DNA of 63,726 bases from Acidimicrobiales bacterium (GCA_029263235.1 JAJCXW010000131.1:1-63726); one strand, 5' to 3'. Counted from the first letter of the stretch, positions 860 to 54,732 are shown. A program made the numbers and translations. Notes: a model not told the origin generated them from the sequence alone.

Positions 860-3800
860 CTATCGGCAGGCAGCACACAGGCGCACGCGACGGCACATGC
901 GACCCTTACCGAGGCAGACGGGCAGCAGTGTTCCGTTCAGGCAGACCTCCTGATCGGCCGCAGCAGGTGGCCGGATGGCGCAGCGCGACGCCCGGTCGCC
1001 CTCGCGGCACTGCTGTGGCTCCAACCGATGGCGCTGCTCGGCGCCCTTCAGGCGGCAGCGGGGCCGGGTGGGACCGTCGCAGGGTGCCGGCTGGCACTCG
1101 ACCCTGTCCTGGGGATGGCGGCACTCGGGCGCGTAGGTGGGATCTGCCGCCCAGACCGCCTCGCAGACCTGCTCTGCCGTCGCATTGCCCGTGCAGGCGC
1201 CGGCGATGCAGCGATCGTCGGTGCCGTCGCAGGGATCCCCGTTGTCGCACGAATTTCCCTCGCTGAGCGCAGACGTGCAGTTTGTGCAGGGCCGGCCGCC
1301 CGTCTCGTCCGGCACCTCGACCATCTCCTCGTGCACGCAGGGTCCGCCGGGCCCGGTCAGGTGTGTGATGCGCAGCAGGTAGCGCCCGGCGGCGACGCCC
1401 GACAGCCAGCGTCCGGTGAAGAGCAGGCTGCCGTCGCTGATGTTGCGCCACTCGACGGTGGGCCCACCGGTGGCGTTCGGGCAGCCGCTCAGGCCGGTCA
1501 GGTGGGCGCTGCCGGTCAGCGGCCGGCAGGGCATGGTAACGGCGCGCACACGCACGTGTGCCCGTGGTGCGCACGGCAGCGACACACAGCGTCCCTGGGG
1601 CGTGTCCCAGGGACCGGCCTTGTCCTCCTCGAGGCAGGTGTCGACCGTGCACGCGTCGTGGTCGTCGCAGTCTCGGCGCGCCGTGGGCAGACAGAGGCCG
1701 CGGCCGTCGCAGCGGTCGCTCGTCGTGCAGAATCGGCCGTCCTCGCAGTGTGCGCCGCGCTCTCTGGGCCGCACGTCACATCGGTGCGTTGTCTCGTCGC
1801 AGAGGTGCGCGCTGCAGTCGGGGTGTGTCCCGTTCGGCACGGGCTGCTGGGCACAGTCGCGATCGGTCCGGCAGCAGGCGGCCGGCACCGGGAGGCCGGT
1901 GCACGGGTCGCAGAGGTGGGGATCCGTGGTGGTGCCGTTGCAGACCCCGCAGACGTCAAGGGCAAAGGGCCGCACCGGGCCGTAGTGGTAGGACGGCAGC
2001 AGGCAGCAGCCGTCCTCCTCCCGGCAGTCGTGCTGACAGCGGCCGTCGTCCTCCTCCACGCAGCTGTCCACGGTCAGCACCTCTCCGTCGTCGCAGTCGA
2101 TCGGTGGGTGCTGGCAGCCGTACGCTGAGCTCGGCACGCAGAGATCGTGGGTGCAGTTCAAGCCGTCGTCGCAGTCGCGCACGGGGTGCACGCAGCCGAC
2201 CCCCGGCCGGCAGTGGCTGTCGGTGCAGCTGCTGCCGTCGTCGCAGGGCAGCTGGCCGGCGCCGGACACGCAGGTGCCGTTCCCGTTACAGCGGTCTCCG
2301 ACGGTGCAAGGATCGCCGTCCTCACACGGCGCCTGGTTTGGCGTGTACTCGCACTCGCCCGTCTCCCGGATGCACATGACGTCGTGGCAGGGTCGCGGTG
2401 GGCAGTGTGTGTGGTGCACCGACCCGGTGCCGCCGCAGTGGCCCTGGCCGTCGCAGGTCTCGTACGCAGTGCACAGGTCCCCGTCGTCGCAGGGGTGGCC
2501 TGCAGGCGTTTGCCCAATGACGCAGCCGCTCTCCGGCCGGCAGAGCGGCTGCAGGCAGCCACCGGCCGTGTAGGATAGGCTGCAGTTGAGGGCGGGGCCG
2601 CCGGTGCAGCTGCCCTGCTTGCAGTGGTCGCCGGCGGTGCAGGCGTTCTGGTCGTCGCACACGGTGGTGTTTGGCGCGTTCCAGTAGACGCAGATCGAGT
2701 CGATGCACTGCTTCAGGTGGCACTCGCGATCGTCACAGTCGTGGTTGTTGGCGCAGGTGGTGCCGCAGCCCTCGTCGACGAGACCGTCGCAGTCGTCGTC
2801 GAGGCCATTGCAGAGATCAGGGAAGCGCCGCGTGTCCTCGTCGTCGACCGTGGGCCCCGTGGCGCCCACGCAGGCCACCGCGCCGGTGCTGGCGTTTGCG
2901 CAGGCCCAGCGGCCCTGCTCGCACACGCCGACCGCCGATCCGCACAGCTCGCCGATCGGTGCCCGGTTTGAGCGCTGGCAGCCACCGTCGGGCCGGCAGT
3001 ACTCGTCGGTGCAGAGGTTGCCGTCGTCGCAGTCGAGCTCGGTACCGTTTCCGACGCACCAGCCCTGCGCGCAGACGTCCTGCCCGGGCGTGCAGTCGTT
3101 CTCGTCGTCGCAGTGTGTGCCGGTGGCCAGGTTGCGCACCAGACAGCCCTCGCCCTGCACGCAGACGTTCCGCTGGCAGGGCCCCTTGGCCTCGGTGCAC
3201 TGTCGTGCGGTACCGCGACACTCGCCGCTCGGCTGGCACTTGTCTCCCTCGGTGCACTGGTCCAGGTCGTCGCAGGGCCGGTACAGGTTTGCGCCGACCG
3301 CGTTCAGGCACTCGCCCGTCTCCGGGACGCAGCCGGTCTCGGTGCAGGGGTTGCTGTCGTTGCAGCGCGTGTGCCAGTTTGGCGTGTGCCGGCAGCCGCT
3401 GTCCGGGTCGGCCCCCTCGGCCAGCGGCTCGCAGCGGTCTGTGCTGCAGAGATCCGGCACGGGTCCCTGGCAGCGGTCGTGCCGAGGCAGGTTCACGCAG
3501 CGCCCGCCCTGGCGGCAGCGGTCGTGGGTACAGGATGCATTGTCGGCGCAGAGCTGATGCAGGAGCAGGGGGGTGCAGACAAACTTGCCCGGCTGGTAGT
3601 GGTCGGGCGTGCAGCGCCCCCGCTGGCAGTCGCCGACCAGCGGGCAGAGGGCCGAGTCTGCGCGCAGCTTGCAGGTGCGCCACTGCTCCTCGCAGTAGCC
3701 CGCGCCACACTCGGTGGCATTCGGGCAGACGATGGGCTGACCGGGCACGCATCCGGTGCGGGTATCCGCGTGGGGAGACCGGGGTGCACAGCGCTCCTCG

Positions 3801-6025
3801 CCATTGCAGTACACGCCGTCGTCACATCGTGGGTGCAGCGCCTCCTGCTGGCAGCTGCCCGTCTGGTCGCAGAAGGGCTCCGTGCAGCCAGGGCCATCCG
3901 AGGGACAGAGACTGTCCTGCGGCTCCAGGTAGCAGTGAAAGGTCTCCGTGCTGCAGCGCGGCTGGCCGCACTCGGTCGTCGGCAGCACCCCCAGGCAGAG
4001 GGTGTCATCCGCCACGGTGTCGCAGTCCTGCAGGGTGCTGTTGCAGAACTGTCGTCCGCACGTGCCAACAATCTCGGCACACTTTGGCGCCGGGGGGACG
4101 TCCGGTGGCGCGCAGCCGCTGACCGGATCTGCCTGCCAGTGGTGAGGCCGGCACTGCAGCGGCGCGGCGCAAAAGTCTGCGTCTACGTTGCAGGCAGCAT
4201 GCACCGACAGGCGGACACACTGGCCGTCCGATTCGTCACAGGAGTCGTCGGTGCAGTTGAACCCGTCCGAGCAGTCGCGCTGCGCCGCCTCGCACATCAG
4301 CCCCACACAGCGACCGGGTAGGTCGCAGAGCCGCCCGGTGGTGCAGCTGGTGTTTTCCGGCTTGGCCAGGAAGCTGCAAGTGTGGTCGGCGAGGTTGCAG
4401 TAGCCCTCGGCGCACTGCTCGCTGGTCAGGCACATGTGGTTGTTCTTGCAGCAGCCAGGCACTGGCACATGCGACTCGATACCGGTGACCGGATCACACG
4501 TGTCTGTCGTGCAGACGCAGCCGTCGTCGATCGAGGGGGTGTGTCGCACGCAGCGGTCCGTGTAGGGGTGGCAGAACTCGCTGGTGCAGTTGTTGTGGTC
4601 GTCACAGTCGGCATGTGTCGCACAGCACTCCTCGATCCCCAGAATCGCCTCAATGCTCTGGCAGCTGCCCTGGTGGCACTCTTCGCACGCGCCGCATGCT
4701 GGATAACACGATGGCGGCGGCGGCGGCGGCGGCGGTGGCGGCGGCGGTGGCCCGCCGGTGGTGCCGGTTGTACTTGGCACCCCTGTGGTACTGGTCGTAC
4801 CGGTGGTGCCGGTCGTGCTTGTCGTCCCCGTGGTGCCAGTTGTGCCGGTCGTTCCCGTCGTGGAGGTCGATGTTGTGCTGGTGGTACCTGGCGTTCCCGT
4901 CGTGGAGGTCGACGTTGTGCTGGTGGTACCTGGCGCCCCCGTCGTGCCGGTTGTGGAGGTCGAGGTCGTGCTGGTGCTCGACGGGGGATGCTTTTTCTCC
5001 TTTTCCTTCTCCTTCTGCTTTGTGCAGCAGACCCGGGTGTCGCGGCCGAGGCAGCGGCCTTGGAGACCCTCGTGTGGATAGCAGCTGGTGCCGGCCGCTT
5101 GGTGGCCGCAGGGCCCATACTCAATGCCCTCCTGGTAGGAAGGATACCGGTGCTCGCATGCCGGCGCCGGCTCGGGCCGGCGGCTGGGCACACAGCATCG
5201 ACCGTGGCCGTCGCCCAGGCAGCAGCCCGCGCCCTCGCCACACGGCGCCCCCGGCGTCGTCTCGTGATTGCAAAGGCTGTCGTGCAGACTCAGCGGCTTG
5301 AACCCGCCCTCCTCGCCCGGGAAGATCAACGCGGCGCACTCTTCCCGCCAAACTGGCCTCGTGTGCGGGGGCGGTGGTGGCGGCGGCGGCGGTGGCGCCT
5401 CCTTCTCCTTCTCTCGCACCCGTTCCTTCTCCTTCCATTGCCTCGTGGCGGGGAGACAGCAGACCTTGGCGTCGCCGCCCATGCAGATTCCGGTCGCGCC
5501 GCCGCGCGTCGGCGCACAGGTGGTGCCCTGTGTCTGCGTGCCGCACGGCGGGTAGTGTAGACCGTTGGGAAAGTCGCCGTTCCGGGCCTGACAGCCCGGG
5601 CTGGGCAGCGGGGTCTGGCTCGGCAGACAGCAGCGGCCGTCTGCCGGGCCCAGGCAATTTCCGGCACCGCCGGCGCAGGAGGTTCCCGGCAGGACGCCGG
5701 CTCCGCACTGGGTGTCGTCGGCGGCCAGCGGTTTAAAGCCCCCGTCTTCGCCGGGAAAGATCAGCGCAGCACAGGAGGTATCCCTGACGGGCAGGCAACA
5801 CGCCGTGCTGCCGCCGCCAAGACACATGCCGTCCGGCCGCTGCGGGCACGGATCGCCAGCCTCGCATACCCGGCAGCCCGGATCCCGCGCGCTGTCGGGT
5901 TTCAGCAGCGTGTCGCCAAGGAAACGAACCGACTGGCAGGTAGCGGCGCCGGGTCGTCGGGCCGCCGAGAGGCGCGCAGCGCCGAGCGCCGCCAGGAAAA
6001 GCACAAGCAGCCGCGATGGCCACAT
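860..6025 (-). CDS. Giant secreted Cys-rich / mucin-like repeat protein (1721 aa)
   Basis: The ORF opens at GTG 6112. The in-frame ATG at 6025 gives a signal-peptide-like start, MWPSRLLVLFLAALGAARLSAA. It has two tandem ~110-aa Cys modules (CAALIFPGE[DE]GGFKPL...), poly-Pro runs, a Thr/Ser-rich tract, then dozens of CDDGxxCTxDxC-like repeats. Confidence 0.7.
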   Translation of the reverse strand: MWPSRLLVLFLAALGAARLSAARRPGAATCQSVRFLGDTLLKPDSARDPGCRVCEAGDPCPQRPDGMCLGGGSTACCLPVRDTSCAALIFPGEDGGFKPLAADDTQCGAGVLPGTSCAGGAGNCLGPADGRCCLPSQTPLPSPGCQARNGDFPNGLHYPPCGTQTQGTTCAPTRGGATGICMGGDAKVCCLPATRQWKEKERVREKEKEAPPPPPPPPPPHTRPVWREECAALIFPGEEGGFKPLSLHDSLCNHETTPGAPCGEGAGCCLGDGHGRCCVPSRRPEPAPACEHRYPSYQEGIEYGPCGHQAAGTSCYPHEGLQGRCLGRDTRVCCTKQKEKEKEKKHPPSSTSTTSTSTTGTTGAPGTTSTTSTSTTGTPGTTSTTSTSTTGTTGTTGTTGTTSTTGTTGTTSTTGVPSTTGTTGGPPPPPPPPPPPPPSCYPACGACEECHQGSCQSIEAILGIEECCATHADCDDHNNCTSEFCHPYTDRCVRHTPSIDDGCVCTTDTCDPVTGIESHVPVPGCCKNNHMCLTSEQCAEGYCNLADHTCSFLAKPENTSCTTGRLCDLPGRCVGLMCEAAQRDCSDGFNCTDDSCDESDGQCVRLSVHAACNVDADFCAAPLQCRPHHWQADPVSGCAPPDVPPAPKCAEIVGTCGRQFCNSTLQDCDTVADDTLCLGVLPTTECGQPRCSTETFHCYLEPQDSLCPSDGPGCTEPFCDQTGSCQQEALHPRCDDGVYCNGEERCAPRSPHADTRTGCVPGQPIVCPNATECGAGYCEEQWRTCKLRADSALCPLVGDCQRGRCTPDHYQPGKFVCTPLLLHQLCADNASCTHDRCRQGGRCVNLPRHDRCQGPVPDLCSTDRCEPLAEGADPDSGCRHTPNWHTRCNDSNPCTETGCVPETGECLNAVGANLYRPCDDLDQCTEGDKCQPSGECRGTARQCTEAKGPCQRNVCVQGEGCLVRNLATGTHCDDENDCTPGQDVCAQGWCVGNGTELDCDDGNLCTDEYCRPDGGCQRSNRAPIGELCGSAVGVCEQGRWACANASTGAVACVGATGPTVDDEDTRRFPDLCNGLDDDCDGLVDEGCGTTCANNHDCDDRECHLKQCIDSICVYWNAPNTTVCDDQNACTAGDHCKQGSCTGGPALNCSLSYTAGGCLQPLCRPESGCVIGQTPAGHPCDDGDLCTAYETCDGQGHCGGTGSVHHTHCPPRPCHDVMCIRETGECEYTPNQAPCEDGDPCTVGDRCNGNGTCVSGAGQLPCDDGSSCTDSHCRPGVGCVHPVRDCDDGLNCTHDLCVPSSAYGCQHPPIDCDDGEVLTVDSCVEEDDGRCQHDCREEDGCCLLPSYHYGPVRPFALDVCGVCNGTTTDPHLCDPCTGLPVPAACCRTDRDCAQQPVPNGTHPDCSAHLCDETTHRCDVRPRERGAHCEDGRFCTTSDRCDGRGLCLPTARRDCDDHDACTVDTCLEEDKAGPWDTPQGRCVSLPCAPRAHVRVRAVTMPCRPLTGSAHLTGLSGCPNATGGPTVEWRNISDGSLLFTGRWLSGVAAGRYLLRITHLTGPGGPCVHEEMVEVPDETGGRPCTNCTSALSEGNSCDNGDPCDGTDDRCIAGACTGNATAEQVCEAVWAADPTYAPECRHPQDRVECQPAPCDGPTRPRCRLKGAEQRHRLEPQQCREGDRASRCAIRPPAAADQEVCLNGTLLPVCLGKGRMCRRVRLCAACR
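4711..4985. repeat. Coding low-complexity block: poly-Pro run followed by imperfect tandem Thr/Ser/Gly repeats
   Basis: (GGC)n on the plus strand encodes 13 Pro on the minus strand. It is followed by ~45-51-nt imperfect repeats encoding TSTTSTSTTGTxGTT. Confidence 0.8.
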
Positions 6026-6142
6026 GACCGCGGTGGCAAGGCTTGCCCGGTCGGGCCAGCTGAGCATATAGCAAGTGTCGATAGATTCCTTTACGGTTTG
6101 CGCACACCTCACCCCACCACGACGCCGACCCGAGCCGCGCCA

Positions 6143-6775
6143 CTAGCGGCCACCGCGGCCGTTGAGCCGCTGCAGGTTGGCGTGATTTGCGTCAGTCTGC
6201 CGCTGCAGCGCCTTCAGCTCTGCGCGTGCTGCCATCACCTGCGCGGCTGACGGGGCAGCGCCCAGGGCTGGGCGCTTTGCCCCACCCGTGTCGCCGCCGC
6301 CGCCGCCGCCGCCGTTGCTGGCCGTGGTGGGGATGGGATTCCAGTCACTGTCCAGTTCGCAGACAAACTTGCACCCCGGGCGGTCGCCCTGCTTGACCAT
6401 GCTCAGCTCCGTCGGGGTGTGGCCGTAGACTGAGCTGCCCAGGTCGTCTGGGTCAGAGAGAAAGCAACGGAGCGACAGGGAGCACTCGGTGGCGGACCTG
6501 TCGCGAATCTTGCGCTTCATGGCGATGCCATGGATCGGCCGAGAGGCCATTGTCTCGCAGTTTGCCCGCAGCGTCTGGTCGGCCGGGTGAAAGAACGCAT
6601 GGGACACCCGACCGTACTGGATGCCGCCGTGCTCGGTTTGCAGGGGAAGGTGGCGCATCCTTCGGGCTACCGCCTTCATCTGGTTGCTCCGCAGATTCCA
6701 CCCGTTGTACGCGGCGTCCCGGCCGCGCGGGTGTGCGACAATCTGCCAGCGATACTGCTGTTTTGCGGGGGCCAT
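6143..6775 (-). CDS. Hypothetical protein
   Basis: ATG-initiated 210-aa ORF with balanced composition, a Gly run and a C-terminal coiled-coil-like segment. It fits the spacer/motif layout. No family recognised. Confidence 0.5.
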   Translation of the reverse strand: MAPAKQQYRWQIVAHPRGRDAAYNGWNLRSNQMKAVARRMRHLPLQTEHGGIQYGRVSHAFFHPADQTLRANCETMASRPIHGIAMKRKIRDRSATECSLSLRCFLSDPDDLGSSVYGHTPTELSMVKQGDRPGCKFVCELDSDWNPIPTTASNGGGGGGGDTGGAKRPALGAAPSAAQVMAARAELKALQRQTDANHANLQRLNGRGGR

Positions 6776-6857: not shown

Positions 6858-7601
6858 TTACTCTGCCATCGGATCATCCGCTGCTACCTCCCGCCGGGGC
6901 GGAGCAGCCGGGGCGTCCCGTTCTGCCTGCTGCAGGGCGGACAGATACGCCGCCATGACCGTCTCCAGTCTGCCCATGCTGGCGCGTGTCTCGACAACGC
7001 AATCCATCGCAGACACCAGCTGGCGCTTGAGTGCCGAGCGCGCGCTTGCGGGCATTGCGTCAATCCCTGCTGCCTCTAGATCGTCCGGCACAACCAACAG
7101 GGCGCCATCGGTCCCAGCAGCGGCGGCCGTCGTCGCCGCCGCGTCTTCCGCGTCGGCCGGTGTCCGTGCGCCCGTCCCTGCTCCGCGTGCGGGCTGGGCC
7201 GCGGCGGCGCGGCCTGTCCGCTTGCGGCGCACCTTGGCGATCGAGGCCGGCGGCGCATTGCGGAAAAAGTGACCCGCGCGATGAACAAAGCGCCGGGCAG
7301 TCGGCGCATCGCCTTCCTCTGCGCGACGTTTTGAGAAGCCGTACAGGTTCAGCTGGCGGGTGAACGAGTCAATCTTCAGGCCGCCCGCGGGAATCCTCTC
7401 CGGGTACAGCATCAGCATCATGCCGTCTGGAGAGAACTCGATCCACTGGTCCTCCGGCGCCGTGCTGATGGCGGCGGCTCGGGTGTTCTCTGCCCACGGC
7501 ACAGCCTGCTGGCTGTTCCGGACAGGACTCGGGCTCATGCTGCTGCTGCTGTCGTTGTTGCTGCTGTCGTTGCTGTTGCTGATGCTATCGTTAGCTGCCA
7601 T
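6858..7601 (-). CDS. HSF-type (heat shock factor-like) DNA-binding domain protein
   Basis: DSFTRQLNLYGFSKR ... RFVHRAGHFFRNAPPASIAKVRRKR parallels the HSF signature SFVRQLNMYGFRKV ... FQHPCFLRGQEQLLENIKRK. The N-terminus is Ser/Asn-rich and the C-terminus has a heptad-like segment. Confidence 0.65.
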   Translation of the reverse strand: MAANDSISNSNDSSNNDSSSSMSPSPVRNSQQAVPWAENTRAAAISTAPEDQWIEFSPDGMMLMLYPERIPAGGLKIDSFTRQLNLYGFSKRRAEEGDAPTARRFVHRAGHFFRNAPPASIAKVRRKRTGRAAAAQPARGAGTGARTPADAEDAAATTAAAAGTDGALLVVPDDLEAAGIDAMPASARSALKRQLVSAMDCVVETRASMGRLETVMAAYLSALQQAERDAPAAPPRREVAADDPMAE

Positions 7602-7818
7602 GATGTCGCGACGGTCAGAGTGCGTGCTGATGCGTTAAGGAGCGGGTGGTGGTGGTGGTGGCGCGTCTGCCACCCCGGTATAAATGCACGGGCCGAACAC
7701 ATGACCGCTTCCATTGAGAAGAACATCGGAACGGCGGGCGGACACAAGGAATCGGGGCGCGTATAACGGATTGTCGGCACCGGTCGCCGCACCCTCACCC
7801 ACGGCGCCGTGCCGGAGA

Positions 7819-10403
<2,585 letters not shown>

Positions 10404-10407
<4 letters not shown>

Positions 10408-12841: not shown

Positions 12842-15205
12842 CTAGCGGGTGTCCGGGAGCCGCTTCCGCTTTGTCTCCCGGCGCTTTGTAATGTGCCAGC
12901 CGCCCGGCGCGCTGGAGAATGTCTCGCCCTCGACCGGGGCATGTCGATACACCGCAGCCAGGCCGCTGCGGCGCTCCTCTGTCGAGAAGCGGAAGAGGGA
13001 GCGGTCTCGATTAAAGTTTGAGGGCCTGCGCTCGATGGGGCTCCACCAGTACAAGGCCCGCTGGAGGACCACAAGATCGACCACCTCGATGGTGTGTCCG
13101 TCTGCCGCCCATCGCGCCGGTGCCGGCACACTGGCAAGGGCCGCGCAGCAGTTCTCCCATTCGGCCTGGTACCGGTGGGCCTTGCCGTCGCTGAGTCGCT
13201 TCATTGGTGCACGGTAGCGAGCGAACCAGTGGCGCCCGTCGCTGCTTGCGTGCACGGCCGCCAGCAGCTCATGGAAGCGCTCCGGCATTCGGTAGCAGGG
13301 AAGCTCCTCCGACGACCCGGGCGGCGCCGAGCGCCGCTTGCGCTTTCGTCCCGCGCCCGCGCCCGCGCCAGCGCCCGCCACAGGTCCGGGCGCGGCTGCG
13401 GCGGCTGCAGAGGCCTCCTCGTCCGCCGCCGCCGCCGCCGTCCCGTCTGCGTCAGAGGGCAAGATCGTCTCTCGCAGCGCGGGGGCGGCCTCGGCCACGA
13501 CCGGAAGCTGGCGCAGCAGGGCCTGGACCCTTCGCCGCGCGGCACCGCCCGGCGCCATGGCGGCTGCGTCAATTTCCGGCAAGAGCTTGCGGAGGCCGGC
13601 CGGCATCGGCACGAGCTGGCCGGCATGATGCACAAACATTCGAACCCTCTCCCGGCTCAGCCCGCCGTAGTCTGCGCAGAGTCCGCTGCGCTGTGCGCAG
13701 AGCTTCAGCCGGTCGTCTACGCTGCAGGCCTGGTAGATCGCGTGTGCCCTGCGCATCCGTCGGCCGTCGGCTGCGCCCGCCAGGTCCGGTGCCTCGCCCG
13801 CGCTCCAGTATCCGTCGGCGCCAAGCTTTGCCTGCATCTCCTTTGCGTCCCACGGCACCGCTTTCTGGATGGAGGCCGCCCAAAAGGTCTCAGCGGTGAG
13901 CAGTGCGTCCTTCAGGTCAAGGCCCATGACAACCAGGCTGGCCCGCAGGGTATCCTCCGGGAGGGTGGTCCCGCGCCGCAGCGCAGCCTGCAGCTCCCCG
14001 CTGAGGGGCTCGGCCATGGCCGTCTGCAGCATGGTGCAAAACTCGTTAACCTGGGCAATCTCCTCGGGGCCCGCGCCGGTGGCAACCGCCGCGGTCAGCG
14101 GACCAGCGTTTCCGGCCAGCATCTGCTCGGACACCTCGGTGGCGTTGGTTGCCACCTGAATATTGTAGGTCAACAGGGTGTCCAGGATCCCGCGGAGGTC
14201 GTGGATCCGCTGGCGCATGCGCAGGTGTTTCAGCAGGGCCCGGGTCAGCGTGCCGATCGGCTGCACCCTGATGCCCACGACGGCCCTCGTTGCCACTGCC
14301 TCCCAGTGCACCAGCGGCACCGGCGGAAGTACGACGGGACTGCCGGCAGCGGTGACCGGCGTCGCCGGCATGGCCGCCGCACTGTCGCCCGGCACCAGGT
14401 CGACGGCCTGTCTCCAGCACTCTACCACCCACTCGATCTGCTCAATCTGCTCGGCCTCGGTGGCAAGCAGATAGAGGTAGTTGTACAGCGCTGCGCGGAC
14501 AAACGCTTTCCACTGCCCGGGGGTCCAGTAGTTGAGACGGGTGGGTCTCGTTGTCGTCGGCTGGTCGGCGCGGCCACCACCGGCGGTAGCGTGCGCTACC
14601 GCGGCCGCGTAGGCGCTCCCCTCTGCGGTGGCGCCGACTGCTGCCGCCGCCGGCGGCCCGCTCAGGCCGCGCCGCCGGCACATTTTCTTTGCCCGTTCAA
14701 TGACGGCCCCGGCCCAGACGCCGCCGTGGGTCGGCCAGCGCGCGCTGCTGCCGGGGATGTTGTTCACGGTACACCAGTAGAGCGCAATCGCAAGCTCAAT
14801 GTGTGGACGCTGTGCCGGCATGTCGTGCACGAGGAACATACAATCGTGCAGTGTCTGGTAATCGTACTGGTACACGTCGGCGCTGGACTGCGGCCACTCG
14901 ACCCGGGCACCGGTGCCCGGGCTGACCGCAGCGGTAGGATCCACTTCAGCCGTCGGCAAAAGACAGGCGGTTGGGCGGATGCTGCTGCTGCTGCTGCTGC
15001 TGCTTTCTTCGTCCTCGCTTCCGTCCGCCGGGCGTGGCGACACGGGCAGGGAAGAAGAGGGGGAAGCGGAGGAAGAAGAGGTCCGCGGAACGGTAGTTGT
15101 CGTGCTGCTGCTGCTACTGCTGCTACTGCTGCTTCCTCCATCGCCAGCGGCGGTTCCATCGGCGCTAACATCGGCGATGCTGCCTCTGCGCCTGCGCGTG
15201 GCCAT
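12842..15205 (-). CDS. Hypothetical protein (787 aa)
   Basis: The 882-codon ORF is trimmed to ATG 15205 (MATRRRRGS...) because its N-terminal extension would run through the divergent RPB1 promoter. It has an N-terminal poly-Ser tract. No family recognised. Confidence 0.55.
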   Translation of the reverse strand: MATRRRRGSIADVSADGTAAGDGGSSSSSSSSSSTTTTVPRTSSSSASPSSSLPVSPRPADGSEDEESSSSSSSSIRPTACLLPTAEVDPTAAVSPGTGARVEWPQSSADVYQYDYQTLHDCMFLVHDMPAQRPHIELAIALYWCTVNNIPGSSARWPTHGGVWAGAVIERAKKMCRRRGLSGPPAAAAVGATAEGSAYAAAVAHATAGGGRADQPTTTRPTRLNYWTPGQWKAFVRAALYNYLYLLATEAEQIEQIEWVVECWRQAVDLVPGDSAAAMPATPVTAAGSPVVLPPVPLVHWEAVATRAVVGIRVQPIGTLTRALLKHLRMRQRIHDLRGILDTLLTYNIQVATNATEVSEQMLAGNAGPLTAAVATGAGPEEIAQVNEFCTMLQTAMAEPLSGELQAALRRGTTLPEDTLRASLVVMGLDLKDALLTAETFWAASIQKAVPWDAKEMQAKLGADGYWSAGEAPDLAGAADGRRMRRAHAIYQACSVDDRLKLCAQRSGLCADYGGLSRERVRMFVHHAGQLVPMPAGLRKLLPEIDAAAMAPGGAARRRVQALLRQLPVVAEAAPALRETILPSDADGTAAAAADEEASAAAAAAPGPVAGAGAGAGAGRKRKRRSAPPGSSEELPCYRMPERFHELLAAVHASSDGRHWFARYRAPMKRLSDGKAHRYQAEWENCCAALASVPAPARWAADGHTIEVVDLVVLQRALYWWSPIERRPSNFNRDRSLFRFSTEERRSGLAAVYRHAPVEGETFSSAPGGWHITKRRETKRKRLPDTR

Positions 15206-15240
15206 GGCGGCGTGACCGGCGGCGGCGGCGGCGGGTCGGT

Positions 15241-15330
15241 CTTTTGTAGAGGACGGGGTCGTTCTCCGGATGTTCCGGATGCACCATCCGGTTGGTGGTG
15301 GTGGCCGGGCCGCCCTGCCCTCTACAAAAG
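15241..15330. promoter_or_regulatory. Symmetric divergent promoter between RPB1 and the 12842-15205 gene
   Basis: A perfect 12-bp inverted repeat, CTTTTGTAGAGG (15241-15252) / CCTCTACAAAAG (15319-15330), places the same CCTCTACAAAAG box on each coding strand. The centre carries GGATGTTCC (15268-15276, GGAACATCC on the minus strand) and the CCGGATG..CATCCGG inverted repeat. Confidence 0.5.
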
Positions 15331-15415
15331 CCTTGCCCACCGGCACCGGCGCCGTTCTGCTATCGACCTGGGCCGGTGGCCGGTGGCCGCGGAAGCCGAA
15401 GCCGGAGCGGCAGGG

Positions 15416-18400
15416 ATGGACATGTCTGGGCCGGCCGCGACTGCGGCCTCGTTGCACTTTCAGCTCTTCTCTCCGACGGAGATTGTGCAACGCAGTGTGT
15501 GTAAGGTGGAGACGGACGTGCTATATGCTGACCGAGCAGCGGCGGCCGGTGGGTTGATGGACCCTCGGATGGGGGCATGGACGTTTGGGGAGGAGTGTTG
15601 GACCTGCCGGGCAACCGTGCAGACCTGCCCTGGGCACCCTGGGCACATTGAGCTGGCCTCGCCGGTCTTTAACATCTACCATGCGAGCGACGTCCGCGCG
15701 CTGCTGCAGTGCATCTGCCACGAGTGCAGTCGGGTGCTGCTGCGCCCGGTCGCCCACGATGAACCCCGCGGACAGAGCCAACTGAACTGGCACCACCCAT
15801 CGAGCTGCCGCTGCTTCTTCTGCAAGACGCAGCCGTCCGCCCCGTTGCACGTGCCCGAGCTATACTGCACCTGTATCTACTGCCGGCCCGGAACAATGGC
15901 TACAATGACGGCCGAGCAGGCGGCGGCTGCCACCGACCCCAACCGTGCTCCGCCCGCCCGCATTCCCATCGTACCGGCCAGTGAGCGGCGGGCCCACCTG
16001 CGTGCACTTGCGGACGCCAGTGCATCGATTGACACCTGCGGCACGGTGCGTGGTTGCACGGCAAAGAAGCGACGGCTGAACGGCATCGATGCGCCGGCCG
16101 ACAGCTGCCAGGCGGTCCGGGTGCAGGCCGGCGGCGGCGCCGGTGCCGTCATGCGACCGCACGAGCAGGGCGTTGCGCGAGAGCTGGCGCAGGATCCTGA
16201 GCGGGTGATGAAGATTCTAACGGCAGTGAGCGAGCGCGACTGTCGCCTGCTTGGCATTGCGCCCGGTCAGCGGCCAGAGTGGCTGCTGATAAGCGTCCTG
16301 TCGGTGCCGCCGCCGACGATCCGGATCAGCGGCGGCGGCGCCAGTGGCGCCAGTGGCGGAAAGGGGTGTCGTGCAGAGAACGGCCTGACCGAGTCGTTGC
16401 GCGCAATCGTGCGGGCAAACAGCGTCCTCGCCGACGCACGGGCCACCAATGTGCTACCACACGTGCTGAAAACGACCGCCGATGCACTGCAGGTGGCGGT
16501 CACTCAGTACCTCGACGGGTCCGGTGGAGACGGCAGTAATGACGCCGGCGGCGGCGGCGCCGATGGCGTCGACACGGACGCGTCGATTGGCCAGCGGCTG
16601 AGCGGAAAGGAGGGCCGCATGCGCTACAATGTGATGGGCAAGCGCGTTGATTTTTCTGCCCGCACCGTCATCAGCCCAGACCCCACCTTGCGCCTGCAAG
16701 ACGTTGGCCTCCCGATGTACATGGTCAAGACGCTGACCTACCCGGAGCATGTGACGCCGATGCGTCGCGACTTTCTGCAGGCGTGTGTTCAGCGCAGCTT
16801 TGACAGCCCCGATGGGTATCCAGGGGCCACCTTTATTGGTCGACGCGAGGAGATGATCGATATCCAGATGATCCAGCAGCACAAGATGCACGGGGCCGAG
16901 GAGCTGCTACGCCTGCGGCCGGGTGACGTTGTGCACCGGAACCTCATCCGGGGCGATGTTGTTCTGCTCAATCGACAGCCCTCCCTCCACAAGATGTCCA
17001 TGCTGGCCATGCTGGTGGTACCGGTCGCGCCGCGGACCATCTGCTTCCATCCTGCGCTCACTCGTCCGCTGAATGGAGACTTTGACGGAGATGAGTGCAA
17101 TATCCACGTGCCCCAGACAGAGGAGGCCCGCGCCGAGGCACTTCTGCTGATGACCCCGGCCGACAACATTGTCTCCTCGCAGAGCAGCCGCCCGGTGATT
17201 GCCTGGGTCCAGGACACGCTCACCGGGGCCTATCTGCTGAGCGAACGCAACTGCTTTCTTGACCGTGCTGCCGCCATGCAGCTCCTGGTCGCCATCGACT
17301 ACGCTGGCTGCCTGCCCGCCCCCGCGATTCTGAAGCCCACTGCACTCTGGACCGGGAAGCAGCTGATCTCTCTGCTGCTGCCGGCAGACCTTGACATGCG
17401 GCGCATCTCGGCCACCCACCGGACAGAGACGTACGAGGCGGCGCAGATGGCCGGCATGGCGGCGGCGCCGCCGCCCCCTGTGCAGCTGCGGCGCCTGCAG
17501 CTTCTCAACGCCCTTGACACCCACGTGTGGATTCGGCGGGGAGAGCTGGTCAGCGGGCAGCTGACCAGCGCGGTGACGGGGACGGCAGCCAACGGCCTCC
17601 TGCACCGAGTCTGGTCCGACAGCGGACCGGAGATGGCCCGCGACCTCTTGACGGCGCTGCAGCGCCTTGTGGGTGCCTGGCTGGAAACGTACGGATTTAG
17701 CGTTGGGCTGGCCGATTTGACGGCCAGCCCGGCCATCAAGGGGCGGATACAGGCGGTGGTTTCGACGGGGGTGGAGAAGCTGGACGAGGTGGAGGCCGAG
17801 GTCGGCACCGACTCGGTGCGGTTTGAGCAGATGGCCAACGTGGCGCTCAACCGGGTGCGCATGGCCTCGGGCGACATTGCCCGCGAAGCGGTCGGTCGGA
17901 CCAATCGCGTGAATCACATGGTCACCTCGGGCGGAAAGGGTAGCACGTCCAATTTCGGCGGCCTGCTCGGCTGCGTCGGCCAGCAGAATGTCGACGGCTG
18001 TCGGATACGACCGGATCTGCGGGGCCGGACGCTGCCGTCGTTTTTCCGCGGTAACCGCGGCGCCGCAGCGGGCGGCTTCATCGGGTCCAACTACATGAAC
18101 GGCCTCAACGAGGCGGAGTTTTTCTTCCATGCGATGGGCGGCCGCGAAGGCCTGGTTGACACGGCCATCAAGACGGCAGACACGGGCTATCTGCAGCGAC
18201 AAACGATCAAGATGATGGAGACGCTGGTGGTGGCCTACGATGGAACGGTGCGAAACGGAGGCGGCGGCGTTGTGCAGTTTGCCTACGGCGAGGACAGCTG
18301 CGACGCCCGACATCTGCACCGGCAGCACCTGCGGACGGCGGGGATGACCACAGCAGAGCTCCGCGACCGCCTCGGGTACACCGACACGGCCCTCGCGGAA

Positions 18401-20695
18401 GCACGACAGCGGGCGACAGACGAATCCGCCACCGGCCCCGACACCCTCATGACGCCGGAGCAGATTGGCGCCAGCTGTTGCGAGGTGCTGCGGGCAGAGA
18501 TGGCGCAGCTGGAAACGGACCGCCGCAGCCTGCGGACATGCCTTTTGCCGGGTCGGGCCTTTGGCCGCACGGGCGCGAGTGCCATGCTGCCCGTGCCCAT
18601 GGATCGGATGCTCAGGGCGTGCGCCCGCCAGTTTTCCTGTCCTCGCCCGGCGGCGGATCGGGCCCGACCCGATGCCTGCGTGCGCCATGTGACGCGGCTG
18701 TGCGCAAGCGTCGCACGGCTGGTGCTTCCGCTGGCCCCCGACGACGTGACACAGGCGGCCACCGCCGTGCTCTGTGCCCACCTCCGCGCCGAGCTGTCCT
18801 CTCGGCGGCTGGTCAGCGAGCTTGGGTTTAGTGCCATGGCCGTGGTCAGCCTGTGCGGCGACGTCCTCCAGCGAGTGCAGGCGGCGCTCGCGCAGCCGGG
18901 CGAGGCGGTCGGAGTGCTTGGTGCGCAGTCGATGGGAGAGCCGGCCACGCAGATGACCCTAAACACCTTTCACTACGCGGGCGTTTCTGCACAGCGCACC
19001 GCAACGACCGGGGTTGTGCGCCTGCGAGAGATTGCCCGGGCAAATCGCAGCATTGCCACCCCACGCTGCGTCGTCTACCTCGACGACGCCGGCGACCCTG
19101 CGGTTGACCACGCCGCGCGGATGGAAGACATCTTCAGTCGGCTGACCCACACCCGACTGAGCGATGTGGCCACCCTAGAAGTGGTGCAGATTGCCGAGTC
19201 GGCCCGGCCCGAGTGGATGCGAGAGTTTTACGAGCTCGAGAGCTTGCTGGCGCCAGAAACGGTGGCGGCATGTGTGGGATCGACGCTGCGTCTGACGATT
19301 GATCCGGTGGCACTGGCACGTCGCTGGCTGTCCATGGAGCTGACGAAAGAGGCGGTGGTTCACTGTCTGCGGCAACGGTATCCGGACCTCGGGGTTTTTT
19401 GCATGTACGCGAGCAGTTCGCACACGGTGGTTGAGGTTCTGAAGGCAGACCAGCGCCGCCGAGCCCTCGACCATGTTTTGACCGCAGAGCACGACATGGC
19501 CATTCGCCGGTCGGCCGGCCGGGTTTTTCTGTATGTGCAGCCACAGGACCTGCCCGACCACGGAGACGTAGAGGCGCTCGGTCAGACCCTGATGGAGACG
19601 GCCGTGCTGACGTGTTGCCCTGGACTGAGCAACCCGACCGTCTGCGACTCGGAACCTCCCCCGCCCCGCTGGGGGACCGCGGCGGACGGAGACGAGGGCG
19701 AGGGGACCGCGGCGGGGCCGCGCCTGATCGTGGAGGGCAGCAATCTTCTGCATCTTCTCGGGGTTCGTGGGGTCTGTCCGCGCCGGACCGTGTCGAACGA
19801 TATCCACGACACGGCGGCCACGCTGGGAATCGAGGCAGCAGAGTCGCTGATCAATGCGGAGCTCCTTGCGGTGCTAGACGACGCGGGCATCTACGTCGAC
19901 CCGCGCCATCGCCAGCTGCTGGCCGCGACCATGACCCAGACCGGGCAGATCGGCTCGGTCACGTACGATGGCCTGCGGCTCTCCGGCGCCGAGCCCATCC
20001 AGCGGTGTAGTTACGAGCGTACCGCCGTCGTCCTGGCGTCGGCGGCCGTCGCCGGACAGGCTGACCGGCTGACCGGGGTCAGTGCGCCGCTGCTCATGGG
20101 AAAACCCATGACGGTCGGAACGGGGTGCTTTTCCCTGCGCAGCAACCGGAAGATTCTGCAGGCATTTGCGCCGCACAGCCAGGATGTGTTTATCGCCGCC
20201 GAGGAGGAGGATGCCCCGTGCACCCCCCGGCACGATCAATCGCCTGACCAGCGGCACCCCCAGCCGACATCTCCTGCGGTTGGGTGCTACTCACCCGTCT
20301 ACGTCCCGGGTACGCCAAGCTACGTCCCCGGGACGCCAAGTTACGCCCCCGTGACGCCAAGCTACGTCCCTGATGATTCGCCGGAGTACCGGGCCACGAC
20401 GCCGTCGTATGTACCAGGCTCGCCAACGTACCAGCCGGTCGACTGGTCAACTTACGGCCAACCGGCGACACGCGCCGGGTTTTACCAGGCAACCTCGCCG
20501 GTCTATTCCCTGCCCGTCGCGGTCGACTACGGAGGGGCCGGTGCCGAGCATGATACAGGCGCAGTGGTACGTCCGTACACACCAAGCCGCCCGTGGTCCC
20601 TCTCTGCCGCGCAGCAATCGGCGCCGGCACCGGCGCCGGCGCCATTTGTCGCCTCGGGCGGGCTGGGGCGCCGGGTTGCCCGTTACGGGATATAA
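15416..20695 (+). CDS. RPB1: DNA-directed RNA polymerase II largest subunit (RPB1-like)
   Basis: Zinc motif [26 protein letters not shown]; [23 protein letters not shown]; [12 protein letters not shown]; catalytic [12 protein letters not shown]; trigger-loop/bridge regions. The ORF 5' extension (13094-15415) is rejected. Start is at ATG 15416 (MDMSGPAA...). Confidence 0.95.
20288..20440 (+). repeat. 21-nt (heptad) repeats at the RPB1 C-terminus
   Basis: [51 protein letters not shown]. Confidence 0.8.
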
Positions 20696-23351: not shown

Positions 23352-26300
23352 CTAAGCAGCGTCCGTGTGCGCACTCGACCCACTCGCGTTTCCGCCATCC
23401 AGCCGCACGCACGGTTTTATGCCCATGCACTCTAGCTCCTGCATGAGGAGCTTGGCCGAGTAGGGAAGCCGGAGCGAGCGCAGCGAGCCGCTGGTCCGGC
23501 ATCGGCGACACGTCCCACGCCGGTGCAGCACGTCCCAGATTCCAATCAGGCCACACTTTGTGCAAAAATGCGTCCAGTAGACATCGGCCGAGTGCATAAG
23601 CCGCTCCTGTGCGAGGAAGGACGAACCATAGCCGACGAGGCAATCTCGTTCCATCTCGCCCATGCGTAGCCCGCCGCCGGCCGACCGGCCCTTTGGGGCC
23701 TGTCGTGTGATGGGATTCTTGGGCCCGCTGCTGCGTGTGTAGAGCTTTGAGCGGACAAAGTGTGCCAGGCGCTTGTAGTAGACCCAGCCACAGAACAGCT
23801 TGTTTGGCATCTGTCGGCCCGTCATGGGGTCGCAAAAGTAATACTCCCCACTTGGGTGCAGGGGCAGCGCCCTGAGCGTCCCCGCGAGCCAGCTGGCTCG
23901 TCTGCTCACTGGGCCACACGTCTCACAGCGGCGGTCGGTGACCCGGGTGGTGCTGCCGCCGCCGCCAGCGCCGACCGACTGACAGAACGGGCAGGCGGCC
24001 AGGCGGCGCTTGCAGCCTAGCAGCTCGGCGCGCAGCTGGGCGCGCCGAGTGAGCTCGGCCCGGTTCCTTTCCCGGATCCGCTCCTTTAGCTCCTCGATGC
24101 TCAGGCCTTCAAAGGGGGTCGTGTCAACAGCGTCGCCGGTGGCGCAGACATACATGCCTCGCAACATCTCACGCAGCAGCTCGCCGGTCATGCGGCTGGG
24201 CACGCCGTGGGGGTTGAAGATGAGATCGGCCGACAGCTGCAGCACTGGACAGTTCGGCATGTTCTCCTTGGACCACACGGCACCGACGACACCCTTTTGT
24301 GCGTGCTCCGTCGCCAGCTTGTCGCCCGGCTCAGTGTTGCGCAGGCTGCGGAGTTTTATCTTGACGACCTCCTGGCCTGCCTCGTTGGTCGTCCGCAGGA
24401 CGGTGTCAACGATCCCGCCGTCGCCGTCGGGATCTCCGCTGCTCTTCAGAAGATAGCTATAGCAGGCGTCGTGCTCCTTCCCCAGCGCGTCTTTCACCGT
24501 GCGGGTTCGTCCGACCAGCACCGTGCGGACCCCGGGATGCGGAGAGATCCGCGTACCCACCCCGGGAAGGCCGTCCTCGTCGAGGTGATGATAGTCATAG
24601 TGGCGCCGCCCGCCCACCCCCTGGGCCTGGAGCTCTGGATCATTGAGCGCCGCGGCTTTTGTCACCTCGGTGATCGGGTGCCCGATATGCTGACCAGGCT
24701 CGCAGGTGACCGTGATCGTGCGGTAGCTGTCGATTCGGCCTGCGCCCAGTTCGCCGAGGCTCTTGCTGACGATCGTGGCGTCCTCGATGTTTGTCCCCGC
24801 CGCCATGATCACGACAAAGCAGCTCTGGCCGCTGGGCAGCTGGTCGTCTCCGCTGTACTTGGACCACCGTTTGTGCCCAAGCGGCCGCTGGCCGTACTGG
24901 AGCAGCTCGGTAGACTGGTCCATCCGGTACAGCCGGGCCGGATTTGCCACGTTTGGCGCCTGCCGGGCCATGCTGCACTGGTAGGCGTTGCGCGGGCTGG
25001 GACTGTGCTCAGGGCCCGGTGCGTGGGCTCCGATCACGCTCATCATCCCGCTGCCCGGAAGATCCAGATGGGTGCGGCGACCGTCAAGCCCTGCAGCGCG
25101 CAGCGCCGTCACCACGTCTTCCTGCTCGTCGCCGTCGACCATCTCCACCGCGCCGGCGTCCAGCAGGGCGGCCCATCGCTGCCGAGCTGCCTCGTGTTGG
25201 GTGTTGACGTAGCGCATGCAGGCGGCCTGCGCAGCCGTGCCGGCCGCAATCGCGTCAGTGCAGCGCTGAAAGACAGCACGCTGCTGGCTGGCACCGTCTG
25301 CCGCCGGGATGTCCAGATCGTCAGCGATGATCATCGGTCGCATCATGCGACCGGCGTCGCTGCGCACCTGCAGCTGCAACAGGTCCGCCCGCCAACAAAC
25401 GCTGATGTCGCGCATGGCCTCAATCTCGAGCGCGCCGAGGGCAGTCTCGGCCAGCGTGCCGCTGCGCCGCTGGTGGCGAAGACGCGTCGCCAGGACGACC
25501 CCGTCCGCGGCGGCAAACAGCGCCACCGGGCAGCCATTCAGCAGCAGCGTGGCGGTAAGATGGCCGGCGCGGAACACGCCGTCGCCGTCGCCGTTGTCGT
25601 CGTCGTCGCCGCCGCCGCGGCGAACCCGGCACCGGCCGTGGCCCGTGGCGGCCTGATGGTGCTGGCACCGACCGGTGGCGGCCTCGGCCAGCATGGCGTC
25701 CTCGGGTGCCACCGTGCACACTCTGCCACCCACGGTGGCGGCGGTGGTGGCCGCGGCCAGCGTCGTCTCTCCGCAGGCGCCGCCCGTGGTACAAGCACAG
25801 ACACAGACGCCGCTGACCTCGTGGCTGTCATGGGGGTCAGGGACACCGGCCGCAAGGCAGGCCGTAAGCAGGTCGGTGCACGCCGGGTGCCCTGAGATCC
25901 GGCAAACGCCCGAGAGGCTGGTCGTCTTTCCGATCATATCGCCCTCGGGAGTGTTGTTTGGGCAGACCAGGCCGTACGTGGCCCCGTTGAGCATGCGCTC
26001 CATCACCGAGCTGTTGCCCCCGTGGCCGCTGGACCCGACGTGGACGCGTTGTAGCTGCGCGACGTGGCTGAGCAGCGTCTTGCGGTCGACCGGCTCCGTG
26101 ACCCCCGTGCGCACATGTCCGCCGCCGACCCGCTTCTTCCAGTTTCCCGTCTTGAGGGCAAGCACCAGCCCGTTTGTCTGCTGCTTGCCGTCGAGCAGGT
26201 CGAACAGGGGCAGCGCATTCAGCGCCGCCAGGACGCGGTCGACCGCCTGGCCGCTGCTAAGACCGTCGCTCTTTGCCGCCGACTTGCGCGTGGCGGCCAC

Positions 26301-27722: not shown

Positions 27723-27811
27723 CGAGGCGGCACGAGGGCGGGCGGGCGGGCGGGCGCTGCCTTTTGAGGCCAGCGGCTGCGCATGCGGACGCGGGCACGG
27801 CATCCGATTCT

Positions 27812-34347: not shown

Positions 34348-34385
34348 CGGATAGAACATGGGCAGACCCCGTATAGTTCTATCCG
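34348..34385 (+). terminator. Perfect 10-bp stem hairpin downstream of the M13 peptidase stop
   Basis: CGGATAGAAC (34348-57), an 18-nt loop, then GTTCTATCCG (34376-85). It starts 23 nt after the TAG at 34323-25. Confidence 0.5.
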
Positions 34386-34607
34386 GTCGGTGACGAGAAC
34401 ACATAAAGATCCAACATCGCCGACAACGACGGGAGAGTGGCGCGCGGCCCACGGGGTCCCTATTACATTTAGTGGGGGGGGCGGTAGCTCACTCATTCTA
34501 GTCCCGTAATAGTGGACCAGTAGGGCCGGGTGTGCACGTGCGCGGGTGCGTACACAGAAAGGCGTAAATGTACACTTTACCGGCACATGGCCGGTATTGC
34601 AACCGCA

Positions 34608-39913: not shown

Positions 39914-39963
39914 GGAACATTCCGGCCGGGTGTTCCACTCGCCGGTGGCCGCTACATATAACC
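39914..39963 (+). promoter_or_regulatory. Promoter-like module of gene 40008-41615
   Basis: GGAACATTCC (39914-39923), then TGTTCCAC, then the CATATAACC box (39954-39963) 54 nt before the ATG. It lies in a divergent spacer, so no terminator is expected there. Confidence 0.45.
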
Positions 39964-42522: not shown

Positions 42523-42562
42523 GGTTATATGCAGGCGCCGAGCACTGAGAGAATGTTCCATT
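42523..42562 (-). promoter_or_regulatory. Promoter-like module of the RING/zinc-finger gene
   Basis: On the minus strand: AATGGAACATTC (42551-42562), ~20 nt, then the GCATATAACC box (42523-42532), ~60 nt upstream of ATG 42466. Confidence 0.45.
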
Positions 42563-43740: not shown

Positions 43741-43784
43741 AGTTAAGTAAACGATGGAACATTCCATCCGACGGAACATTCCAT
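43741..43784 (-). promoter_or_regulatory. Tandem GGAACATTCC palindromes plus ACTTAAC box upstream of gene 42603-43685
   Basis: (AT/AC)GGAACATTCCATC occurs twice with a 17-nt period (43756-43765 and 43773-43782). The two self-complementary copies could also pair as a 10-bp hairpin just downstream of the stop of gene 43801-44205. GTTTACTTAACTCGG is at 43741-43753 (minus strand). Confidence 0.45.
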
Positions 43785-44382: not shown

Positions 44383-44421
44383 GGAACATTCGGCGGTTCT
44401 ATCGATCGACCGACATAAAAG
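44383..44421 (+). promoter_or_regulatory. Promoter-like module of gene 44466-45653
   Basis: GGAACATTCG (44383-44392), gcgg, TTCTATCGATCGACCGA, CATAAAAG (44414-44421), 52 nt before the ATG. It lies in a divergent spacer. Confidence 0.5.
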
Positions 44422-54636: not shown

Positions 54637-54712
54637 AGCGTCAGTGGTTACATCCCACGCTGGCCGCCGGTGCCGGAAAATGGCCCAACCCGGCCGTCCG
54701 CATGTTCCGCCG

Positions 54713-54732
54713 GTGTTCCGATAGCAGAACAC
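54713..54732 (+). terminator. Short hairpin downstream of gene 54109-54636
   Basis: GTGTTC cgatagca GAACAC, a 6-bp stem, lies ~75 nt after the stop. It overlaps the upstream element of the next gene, so its role is ambiguous. Confidence 0.3.

Follow-up and report, generated by a model that had tools for sequence, protein, structure and literature searches.

The 63,726-nt contig JAJCXW010000131.1 (GCA_029263235.1, Acidimicrobiales bacterium), which was analysed over its whole length and is referred to as the window, encodes on its minus strand a 247-amino acid (aa) protein with a DNA-binding domain (DBD) of the heat shock factor (HSF) type. We consider this open reading frame (ORF) to be, probably, a functional HSF-family DNA-binding gene that was captured and reduced on a giant-virus-like contig, and predict that its product is a regulator during infection. 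The region aa 31-130 is an HSF-type DBD with a predicted winged-helix fold, and a strongly diverged, small member of PF00447. An HSF-type gene in a giant-virus setting is uncommon but not unique, and this one is a new addition to a known family, in unusually reduced form.

At a GC content of ~68% the window carries long spurious ORFs on either strand. The minus-strand ORF 6858-7601 starts with ATG, and its GC content at the three codon positions (GC1/GC2/GC3) was 0.67/0.58/0.76, a pattern seen likewise in RPB1, in RPB2 and in the window's other genes with a family match. Because codon-position GC is as in the RNA polymerase genes, the ORF was taken as a coding frame and not as a chance high-GC ORF. 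The product contains SFTRQLNLYGF (aa 79-89), RRFVHRAGHFFRNAPPASIAKVRRKR (aa 103-129) and LKRQLVSAMDCVVETRASMGRLETVMAAYLSALQQAE (aa 192-228), and ends in a short acidic tail.

Evidence for HSF family membership

Four mutually independent sequence tests (Pfam, phmmer, a query-free hidden Markov model (HMM) and hhalign) were applied to the 247-aa protein. The Pfam profile HSF_DNA-bind (PF00447) was matched with 26.8 bits (E=7.6e-6) against a curated cutoff of 22, with aa 76-127 aligned to positions 48-100 of the 100 in the profile. When the whole protein was compared by phmmer with 1.84 billion representative sequences exactly two non-self matches were returned (E=5.9e-12 and 8.4e-4), both of them HSF proteins with several DBDs from Thraustotheca clavata, an oomycete. 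With the query left out, an HMM made from 120 HSF proteins scored 37.2 bits (E=1.4e-10). The region aa 30-135 was aligned by hhalign to a 16-sequence HSF alignment with a probability of 96.4% (E=1.1e-9), a span that runs from strand 1 (DQWIEFSPDG) through the C-terminal basic block, and BLASTP to a chytrid HSF aligned nearly all of a 106-aa DBD fragment. A phmmer comparison restricted to PDB sequences gave weak similarity (Drosophila HSF 1hks, E=0.64).

An HSF-type DBD had been read into this product by an earlier note made from the sequence alone, and it was borne out by the Pfam score, the leading phmmer match and the hhalign alignment; the search against the Pfam profile, which the note had proposed as a check, was significant. 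The sequence comparisons confirmed that the similarity to HSFs is far beyond chance. A second HSF-like gene, or paralogue, in the window was considered and rejected, as the query-free HMM matched one of the 830 six-frame ORFs of the window, this gene.

Predicted structure and domain anatomy

AlphaFold supplied with a 121-sequence alignment gave pLDDT values of 79-96 over aa 31-130. The model consists of a helix (35-45), two strands (54-56 and 62-65), the recognition helix (77-86) and two further strands (89-92 and 103-107), which follow the HSF order. Helix 2 was reduced to a helical turn of three residues (aa 67-69), and the full helix 2 was the only element missing. The sequence comparisons (the profile test of the N-terminal half and hhalign) gave no support for helix 1 of the winged-helix model. 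The structural comparison suggested in the earlier note, carried out with Foldseek against the PDB, gave HSF1, HSF2, HSF4, HSF5 or Skn7 DBDs for all of the best 50 matches (E down to 3e-5, target TM-score at most 0.75), an outcome that is supportive but not independent, and partly circular, since the alignment used for the model held HSFs only.

The domain was compared in three alignments, two of which (A1 and A3, the latter of 11 sequences) included HSF DBDs of oomycetes, chytrids, cryptophytes, pelagophytes, green algae, plants and mouse, while the third (A2) was the 121-sequence HSF alignment. The recognition-helix columns S, F, R, Q, L, N, G and F were invariant in A1 and A3 (11 of 11 sequences in A3) and all are kept by the query, so that the signature SFTRQLNLYGF, as first noticed, is intact. 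In HSF1-DNA and HSF2-DNA structures Arg71 bonds the guanine of GAA, while Asn74 reads the base before GAA and Arg117 the base before TTC (PMC8379338). The base-contact positions are kept in the query, where R82, N85 and R127 align with HSF1 R71, N74 and R117 in A3, and in the same alignment the KVRRKR block corresponds to HSF1 IKRK including R117. Judged by its sequence, this block (aa 124-129) resembles a nuclear localisation signal and could direct the protein to the nucleus. Identity to canonical HSF DBDs was ~25%, with ~100 alignable and highly divergent positions.

The part of the domain before the recognition helix had been described as shortened, and this held in the alignments: the query has a net 7-8 residues fewer than every other aligned HSF in the stretch from strand 2 to the recognition helix, a gap unique among them. 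The LPxYFKHxN motif of helix 2, the first helix of the helix-turn-helix, was not found in the query in A2 or A3. A three-residue insertion (RAG) follows strand 4 in A1 and A3. The spacing from VPW to SPDG in the query is 27 residues, which we take to equal the distance from VPAF to SPSG in human HSF1.

C-terminal helix

Both AlphaFold runs contained a helix of 45 residues at aa 185-229, which is separated from the DBD by a disordered linker of ~55 aa. The heptad-like segment seen here by the earlier note, and thought able to mediate oligomerisation as HR-A/B does, was upheld as five heptads within a long helix; the comparison with HR-A/B was not, as the segment was weakly coiled-coil-like and had no homology to that region. 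The a positions are hydrophobic (L195, V202, M209, M216, L223) and the d positions mixed (L191, A198, T205, L212, Y219, A226). No HR-A/B trimerisation domain next to the DBD was found in the 247-aa protein from the AlphaFold models and the heptad analysis, and phmmer against the 1.84 billion representatives gave no relatives of the C-terminal helix region. The helix could be an oligomerisation element, though it is short and far from the DBD.

Relatives and precedents

No full-length relative was found in the word-index search, among the 1.84 billion representatives or in query-led scans of IMG/VR. A tblastn search of phage genomes gave no relative of the 247-aa protein, and a word-index search with the DBD alone, which yielded 14 candidates, gave none either.

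The closest single-domain matches came from a biased set of 445 small-HSF candidates, seeded from oomycete sequences and with all of those listed shorter than 190 aa, and were small protist HSF-like proteins of ~160-190 aa. They included P0046 from an ENA metagenome, with 42% identity over 64 aa and with SFTRQLN, and KRRA after GF, in common with the query, and P0101, a 'DNA binding protein' of Aureococcus anophagefferens. These small stramenopile and protist HSF-like proteins resemble the window protein in plan, a single DBD and then a single short helical stretch, and differ in that they are cellular, keep the canonical LPKYFxH helix 2 and have their coiled coil directly after the DBD. In this biased set the sequences give a hint of a stramenopile-type donor, which we do not claim. 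Long metagenome contigs with two other small HSFs (P0039 and P0063) were considered as viral and rejected, the contigs being eukaryote-like.

The eukaryotic HSFs (HSF1, HSF2, HSF4, HSF5, yeast HSF and Drosophila HSF) share with the query the DBD family, the order of elements as modelled, SFxRQLNxYGF, the GAA-reading Arg and the IKRK-type basic block, with 5d5v, 7dct, 7dcs, 5d8l and 8zys as the best HSF structural matches. In contrast to them, the query has a helix 2 and turn that are 7-8 residues shorter and without FKH, the RAG insertion, and neither HR-A/B nor HR-C, its 247 aa offering only the 45-aa helix past the ~55-aa linker. Fungal Skn7, which combines an HSF-like DBD, a coiled coil and a receiver domain, is alike in the modelled fold of the DBD (5d5x and 5d5w were among the matches) and in having a segment of coiled-coil type after it, whereas a receiver domain was not detected in the query by the Pfam scan. 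Skn7 is restricted to fungi.

Among viral proteins the best structural match in BFVD was annotated in UniProt as 'HSF-type DNA-binding domain-containing protein [Sylvanvirus sp.]' (A0A3G5AHN8). A scan of IMG/VR led by a canonical HSF identified four giant-virus contigs, two of the four being giant virus metagenome-assembled genomes (GVMAGs): GVMAG-M-3300012954-26 (L001), and GVMAG-S-ERX555975-30 together with two uncultivated viral genomes (UViGs) of 80-90 kb (L002-L004). ORFs on these contigs matched PF00447 with E=4.7e-17 and 8.7e-12. The likeness to the window protein lies in PF00447 domains on contigs catalogued as giant viruses. In contrast to it, all of the IMG/VR DBDs keep LPKYF(K/R)H, and none has specific similarity to it; for these reasons they look like independent captures. 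The suggestion in the earlier note that the class might be new to giant viruses therefore fails at the level of sequence data, given the Sylvanvirus protein and the four IMG/VR contigs, and stands for the literature searched, in which no paper describing a viral HSF-type factor was found.

Two further observations were made on the IMG/VR contigs. A 209-aa fusion of an HSF-type DBD (E=8.7e-12) with a DNA-ligase OB-like domain (PF14743, E=2e-8) was recorded at L003 5938-6567 (+), L004 5782-6567 (+) and L002 6001-6153, with L003 and L004 carrying the fusion, and we know of no described example of this combination. The neighbours of the fusion gene on L003 encode a ribonucleotide reductase large subunit, a DnaJ-domain protein and an ADP-ribosyltransferase. 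On L001, an AT-rich contig, a canonical HSF-DBD protein of 263 aa (5776-6567, +; E=4.7e-17) is encoded among three WD40 beta-propeller genes.

Probable viral context of the contig

The contig is, as a well-supported inference from its gene content, a fragment of a giant virus, that is, a nucleocytoplasmic large DNA virus (NCLDV). RPB1 lies within 13094-20695 (+) as one intronless ORF with six Pfam domains in order, and RPB2 (23352-27803, -), also intronless, is ~2.7 kb from it. RPB2 scored ~376 bits against yeast Pol II and is therefore far too divergent for a cellular orthologue. In a rough gene map ~89% of the window was coding, with no sign of introns. Other genes with family matches encode a deoxynucleoside kinase, an M13 peptidase, an animal-type haem peroxidase, a ubiquitin-containing protein, a RING finger, a kinase with a MYND finger, a VPS9-MORN protein, an ankyrin protein and a collagen-like protein, and the majority of the remaining ORFs had no Pfam family match.

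A Pfam scan of ~40 ORFs in the 63.7-kb window found no major capsid protein, PolB, A32 packaging ATPase, VLTF3 or D5 primase-helicase. The absence of capsid, PolB and packaging genes applies to this window only and is compatible with a viral origin. The term 'virus-encoded', used from the outset for the HSF-type protein, is supported by RPB1 and RPB2, the dense coding and the few family matches, with the missing capsid, PolB and packaging genes on the other side. An endogenous viral element is possible.

Candidate target sites in promoter regions

The two-unit head-to-head form of the heat-shock element (HSE), GAANNTTC, was observed nine times in the window against 4.6 expected, and five of the nine share a single 9-mer, GGAACATTC. 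This HSE-like 9-mer was present in five copies against 0.14 expected, a number reached by none of 100 shuffles. All five copies are intergenic and are located within 4.5 kb (39.9-44.4 kb) in four promoter regions. Four of the five dyads lie 19-32 nt 5' of a TATA-like box (CATATAAC or CATAAAAG), which is in turn 45-60 nt 5' of an ATG. That the copies were pieces of a longer repeat was considered and rejected, as their flanks are unrelated. In non-coding DNA GAA-N2-TTC was observed five times against 0.56 expected, while other GAA/TTC spacings were not enriched there, save for GAATTC (3 against 0.74). The tail-to-tail arrangement TTCNNGAA was not enriched; in the non-coding DNA the reverse order showed enrichment at neither spacing, and TTC-N2-GAA did not occur.

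The wider element GGAACA, of which GGAACATTC is a sub-form, numbered 12 copies over 2.7 kb of upstream DNA and 16 over 57 kb of coding DNA, which is ~15x denser upstream. Its two orientations were about equal in non-coding DNA (6 and 7), often with several copies, and this distribution amounts to enhancer-like behaviour. Roughly a third of the genes have at least one GGAACA(Y), in either orientation, 5' of a TATA-like box (CATAAAAG, CATATAAC or TATAAG) that lies ~45-85 nt before the ATG. The passages on promoter motifs in a 2017 review of NCLDV promoters, located by keyword, describe A/T-rich motifs only and no GGAACA-type element.

The HSF-type gene is separated by a 217-nt intergenic region from a divergent gene (7819-10407, +) that encodes 862 aa and has no family match. 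This region includes three GAAC units as well as the TATA-like boxes of the two genes. Sixteen consecutive glycines lie near the N-terminus of the divergent gene's product, and the opposite-strand ORF 7635-8543 has the complementary poly-Pro run. The features of the HSF-type gene and the candidate promoter sites are collected in Table 1.

Table 1. Positions of the HSF-type gene, the regions of its product and candidate promoter sites in the window
Feature	Position	Strand	Evidence
Complete ORF, HSF-type DNA-binding protein, 247 aa	6858..7601	-	ORF list; GC1/2/3; Pfam PF00447
Ser/Asn-rich low-complexity N-terminal tail, aa 1-30, predicted disordered	7512..7601	-	Sequence; AlphaFold pLDDT 45-51
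HSF-type DBD, modelled as a winged helix, aa 31-130	7212..7511	-	AlphaFold with 121-sequence alignment; Foldseek; hhalign
Shortened helix-2/turn region YPERIPAGGLK, aa 66-76	7374..7406	-	Alignments A1, A2, A3
Recognition helix with family signature IDSFTRQLNLYGF, aa 77-89	7335..7373	-	Invariant columns; contact roles per PMC8379338
KVRRKR, C-terminal basic block of DBD, aa 124-129	7215..7232	-	Alignment A3; PMC8379338
Ala/Gly/Thr-rich disordered linker with acidic patch, aa 131-172	7086..7211	-	pLDDT 41-52; composition
Long amphipathic helix, five heptads, aa 185-229; candidate oligomerisation element	6915..7049	-	Both AlphaFold runs, pLDDT 86-95; heptad analysis
Putative promoter of the HSF-type gene: TATA-like CATTTATAC ~85 nt 5' of ATG, GTGTTCGG unit directly 5' of the TATA-like box	7678..7700	-	Sequence; function inferred
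HSE-like dyad GGAACATTCC, 32 nt 5' of CATATAAC, before + gene with ATG at 40008; speculative candidate site	39914..39923	+	
HSE-like dyad GGAACATTCT 5' of CATATAAC, before RING-finger gene 42155-42466 (-)	42550..42559	-	
Pair of GGAACATTCC dyads spaced by 17 nt, in the promoter region of gene 42603-43685 (-)	43756..43782	+	
HSE-like dyad GGAACATTCG, 22 nt 5' of CATAAAAG, before + gene with ATG at 44466	44383..44392	+	
Further GGAACA(Y)/TATA-like promoter positions	7693-7740, 34354-34420, 37762, 46518, 50542, 54703-54719		

Proposed function and alternative explanations

Capture of an HSF gene from a eukaryotic host, followed by its reduction, would most likely account for the present domain. 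The product is predicted to bind nGAAn-type units in the major groove through R82, N85 and R127, and the short C-terminal helix, in place of HR-A/B, may hold it together as a dimer or trimer; a dimer or trimer of that kind would for this reason be expected to prefer two-unit inverted repeats, nGAAnnTTCn. The most likely role would be that of a sequence-specific transcription regulator in infection, with a subset of viral promoters favoured as targets because the five GGAACATTC dyads are the only concrete candidate sites. Occupation of host HSEs, as an activator or a competitor, would be a compatible second role.

A narrower proposal can be read from the promoter sequences, in which the trimmed HSF DBD would have been rewired as a virus-specific promoter factor with GGAACATTCC 5' of TATA-like boxes as its site and a co-regulated block of viral genes as its target. 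We regard this as speculative and on balance unlikely. It is similarly doubtful that such a rewired factor would be of the enhancer type, orientation-independent, of cellular origin and serving one class of viral genes as opposed to being a core NCLDV factor.

Several observations weigh against a functional, captured HSF-family regulator on a viral contig. With regard to the family assignment, the Pfam and HMMER alignments were restricted to the C-terminal half of the domain, and the N-terminal half alone was not significant against the HSF profile (E=0.068), although its register was correct. The single-sequence AlphaFold model was poor and uninformative (pLDDT 42), and the structural matches of the alignment-based model carry the circularity described above. 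The query lacks a counterpart to P, F, K and H of LPxYFKH, columns whose conservation in the 121-sequence alignment A2 is 90% or more in every case, and folding and DNA binding are for this reason not guaranteed. In the C-terminal helix the d positions are weak and the hydrophobic moment was not above that of shuffled sequences (p ~0.1). The protein is a singleton, with no full-length homologue in the 1.84 billion representatives or in IMG/VR. Among the candidate sites, the three-unit HSE GAANNTTCNNGAA was absent from the window, and the GAAC/GTTC units, which form part of the wider GGAACA(Y) element, are ~11-12 nt apart and so off the 5-nt phasing of HSEs. All five dyads are one and the same 9-mer, and five identical dyads are equally consistent with the site of a different factor. 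With the exception of RNA polymerase, no NCLDV hallmark is present in the window.

The protein might instead be directed at the host, binding host HSEs so as to induce chaperone genes that the virus needs or to compete with the host HSF, while viral promoters would not be regulated by it. The retention of the GAA-contact residues fits such a factor, as do the basic KVRRKR block, which could serve as a nuclear localisation signal, and the absence of the three-unit HSE from the viral window. A competitor in particular would agree with the Pfam scan, which found no recognised activation domain, and the IMG/VR HSF-type gene that adjoins a DnaJ-domain gene hints at a link with chaperones. However, hetero-oligomers with the host HSF are unlikely given a C-terminal helix unlike HR-A/B, and the HSE-like dyads in viral promoters would have to be a coincidence. 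We consider an exclusively host-directed factor a possibility of minor weight.

Somewhat less probable is that the gene is not an active virus gene at all, the contig being either a giant-virus element that has become endogenous or cellular DNA of another kind, with an HSF-like gene that belongs to a eukaryotic genome or was domesticated by it. The GC content of ~68% would suit cellular DNA, no capsid, PolB or packaging ATPase gene is present in the window, and the closest single-domain matches were small stramenopile-type HSFs, one of them from Aureococcus. These points are countered by adjacent RPB1 and RPB2 genes that lack introns and differ strongly from cellular Pol II, by ~89% coding density with no sign of introns, and by TATA-like and GGAACA elements common to the promoters, which is what one viral transcription programme should produce. 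A cellular or endogenous origin would be compatible with any of the functional readings.

That the gene is a decaying or non-DNA-binding relic, an HSF fragment lacking part of the helix-turn-helix core and either non-functional or a protein-interaction module, would agree with the net loss of 7-8 residues that takes out the near-invariant FKH, the low and partial Pfam score, the singleton status and the low-complexity sequence on the flanks of the domain, but is improbable in view of an uninterrupted ORF of 247 codons with coding-type GC3, a compact domain modelled by AlphaFold with high confidence, and recognition-helix contact and signature residues that are all kept while their surroundings have diverged to ~25% identity, the pattern expected from selection on DNA binding.

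Giant viruses are known for the capture of enzymes and translation components, and their capture of eukaryotic domains is commonplace; to our knowledge captured sequence-specific eukaryotic transcription factors have seldom been discussed for them. The contig holds both halves of a testable pair, a minimal HSF domain with its GAA-reading residues and an over-represented HSE-like dyad. A link between the two would show how a virus converts a stress regulator of its host into a promoter factor for its own use; failing such a link, the host heat-shock response may be what the protein manipulates. Without the promoter link the find is incremental, because domain capture is commonplace and other giant-virus contigs carry PF00447; its weight would rise substantially if the protein bound the GGAACATTCC promoter dyads. 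Because helix 2 has for the most part been lost naturally, the protein also offers a test of how much of the HSF helix-turn-helix folding and DNA recognition require.

Other features of the contig

The RPB1 ORF is open for ~785 codons 5' of the first Rpb1 domain and overlaps an opposite-strand ORF of 882 codons (12842-15490, -) with coding-like GC3. At 860-6112 (-) is a Cys-rich ORF of 1750 aa with a signal-peptide-like N-terminus, poly-Pro runs, a Thr/Ser/Gly-rich mucin-like block and many Cys-repeat modules, for which the sole family hint was a weak, below-cutoff match to the Dictyostelium CTDC repeat (E=2.8e-4). The animal-type haem peroxidase (PF03098, E=1.3e-94) is encoded at 48340-50319 (+) and the M13 (neprilysin-type) peptidase at 31818-34325 (+); both seem unusual cargo for a virus. 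The ubiquitin-containing protein (46585-47655, +) is 356 aa long, and its ubiquitin domain (aa 143-214, E=3.5e-23) is internal, as opposed to an N-terminal ubiquitin fusion. The segment 40001-42000 has an AT skew of +0.25, unlike the rest of the window, and coincides with the gene 40008-41615 (+), a 535-aa Ala/Gln/Glu/Thr-rich ORF without a family match that is located behind a GGAACATTCC promoter.

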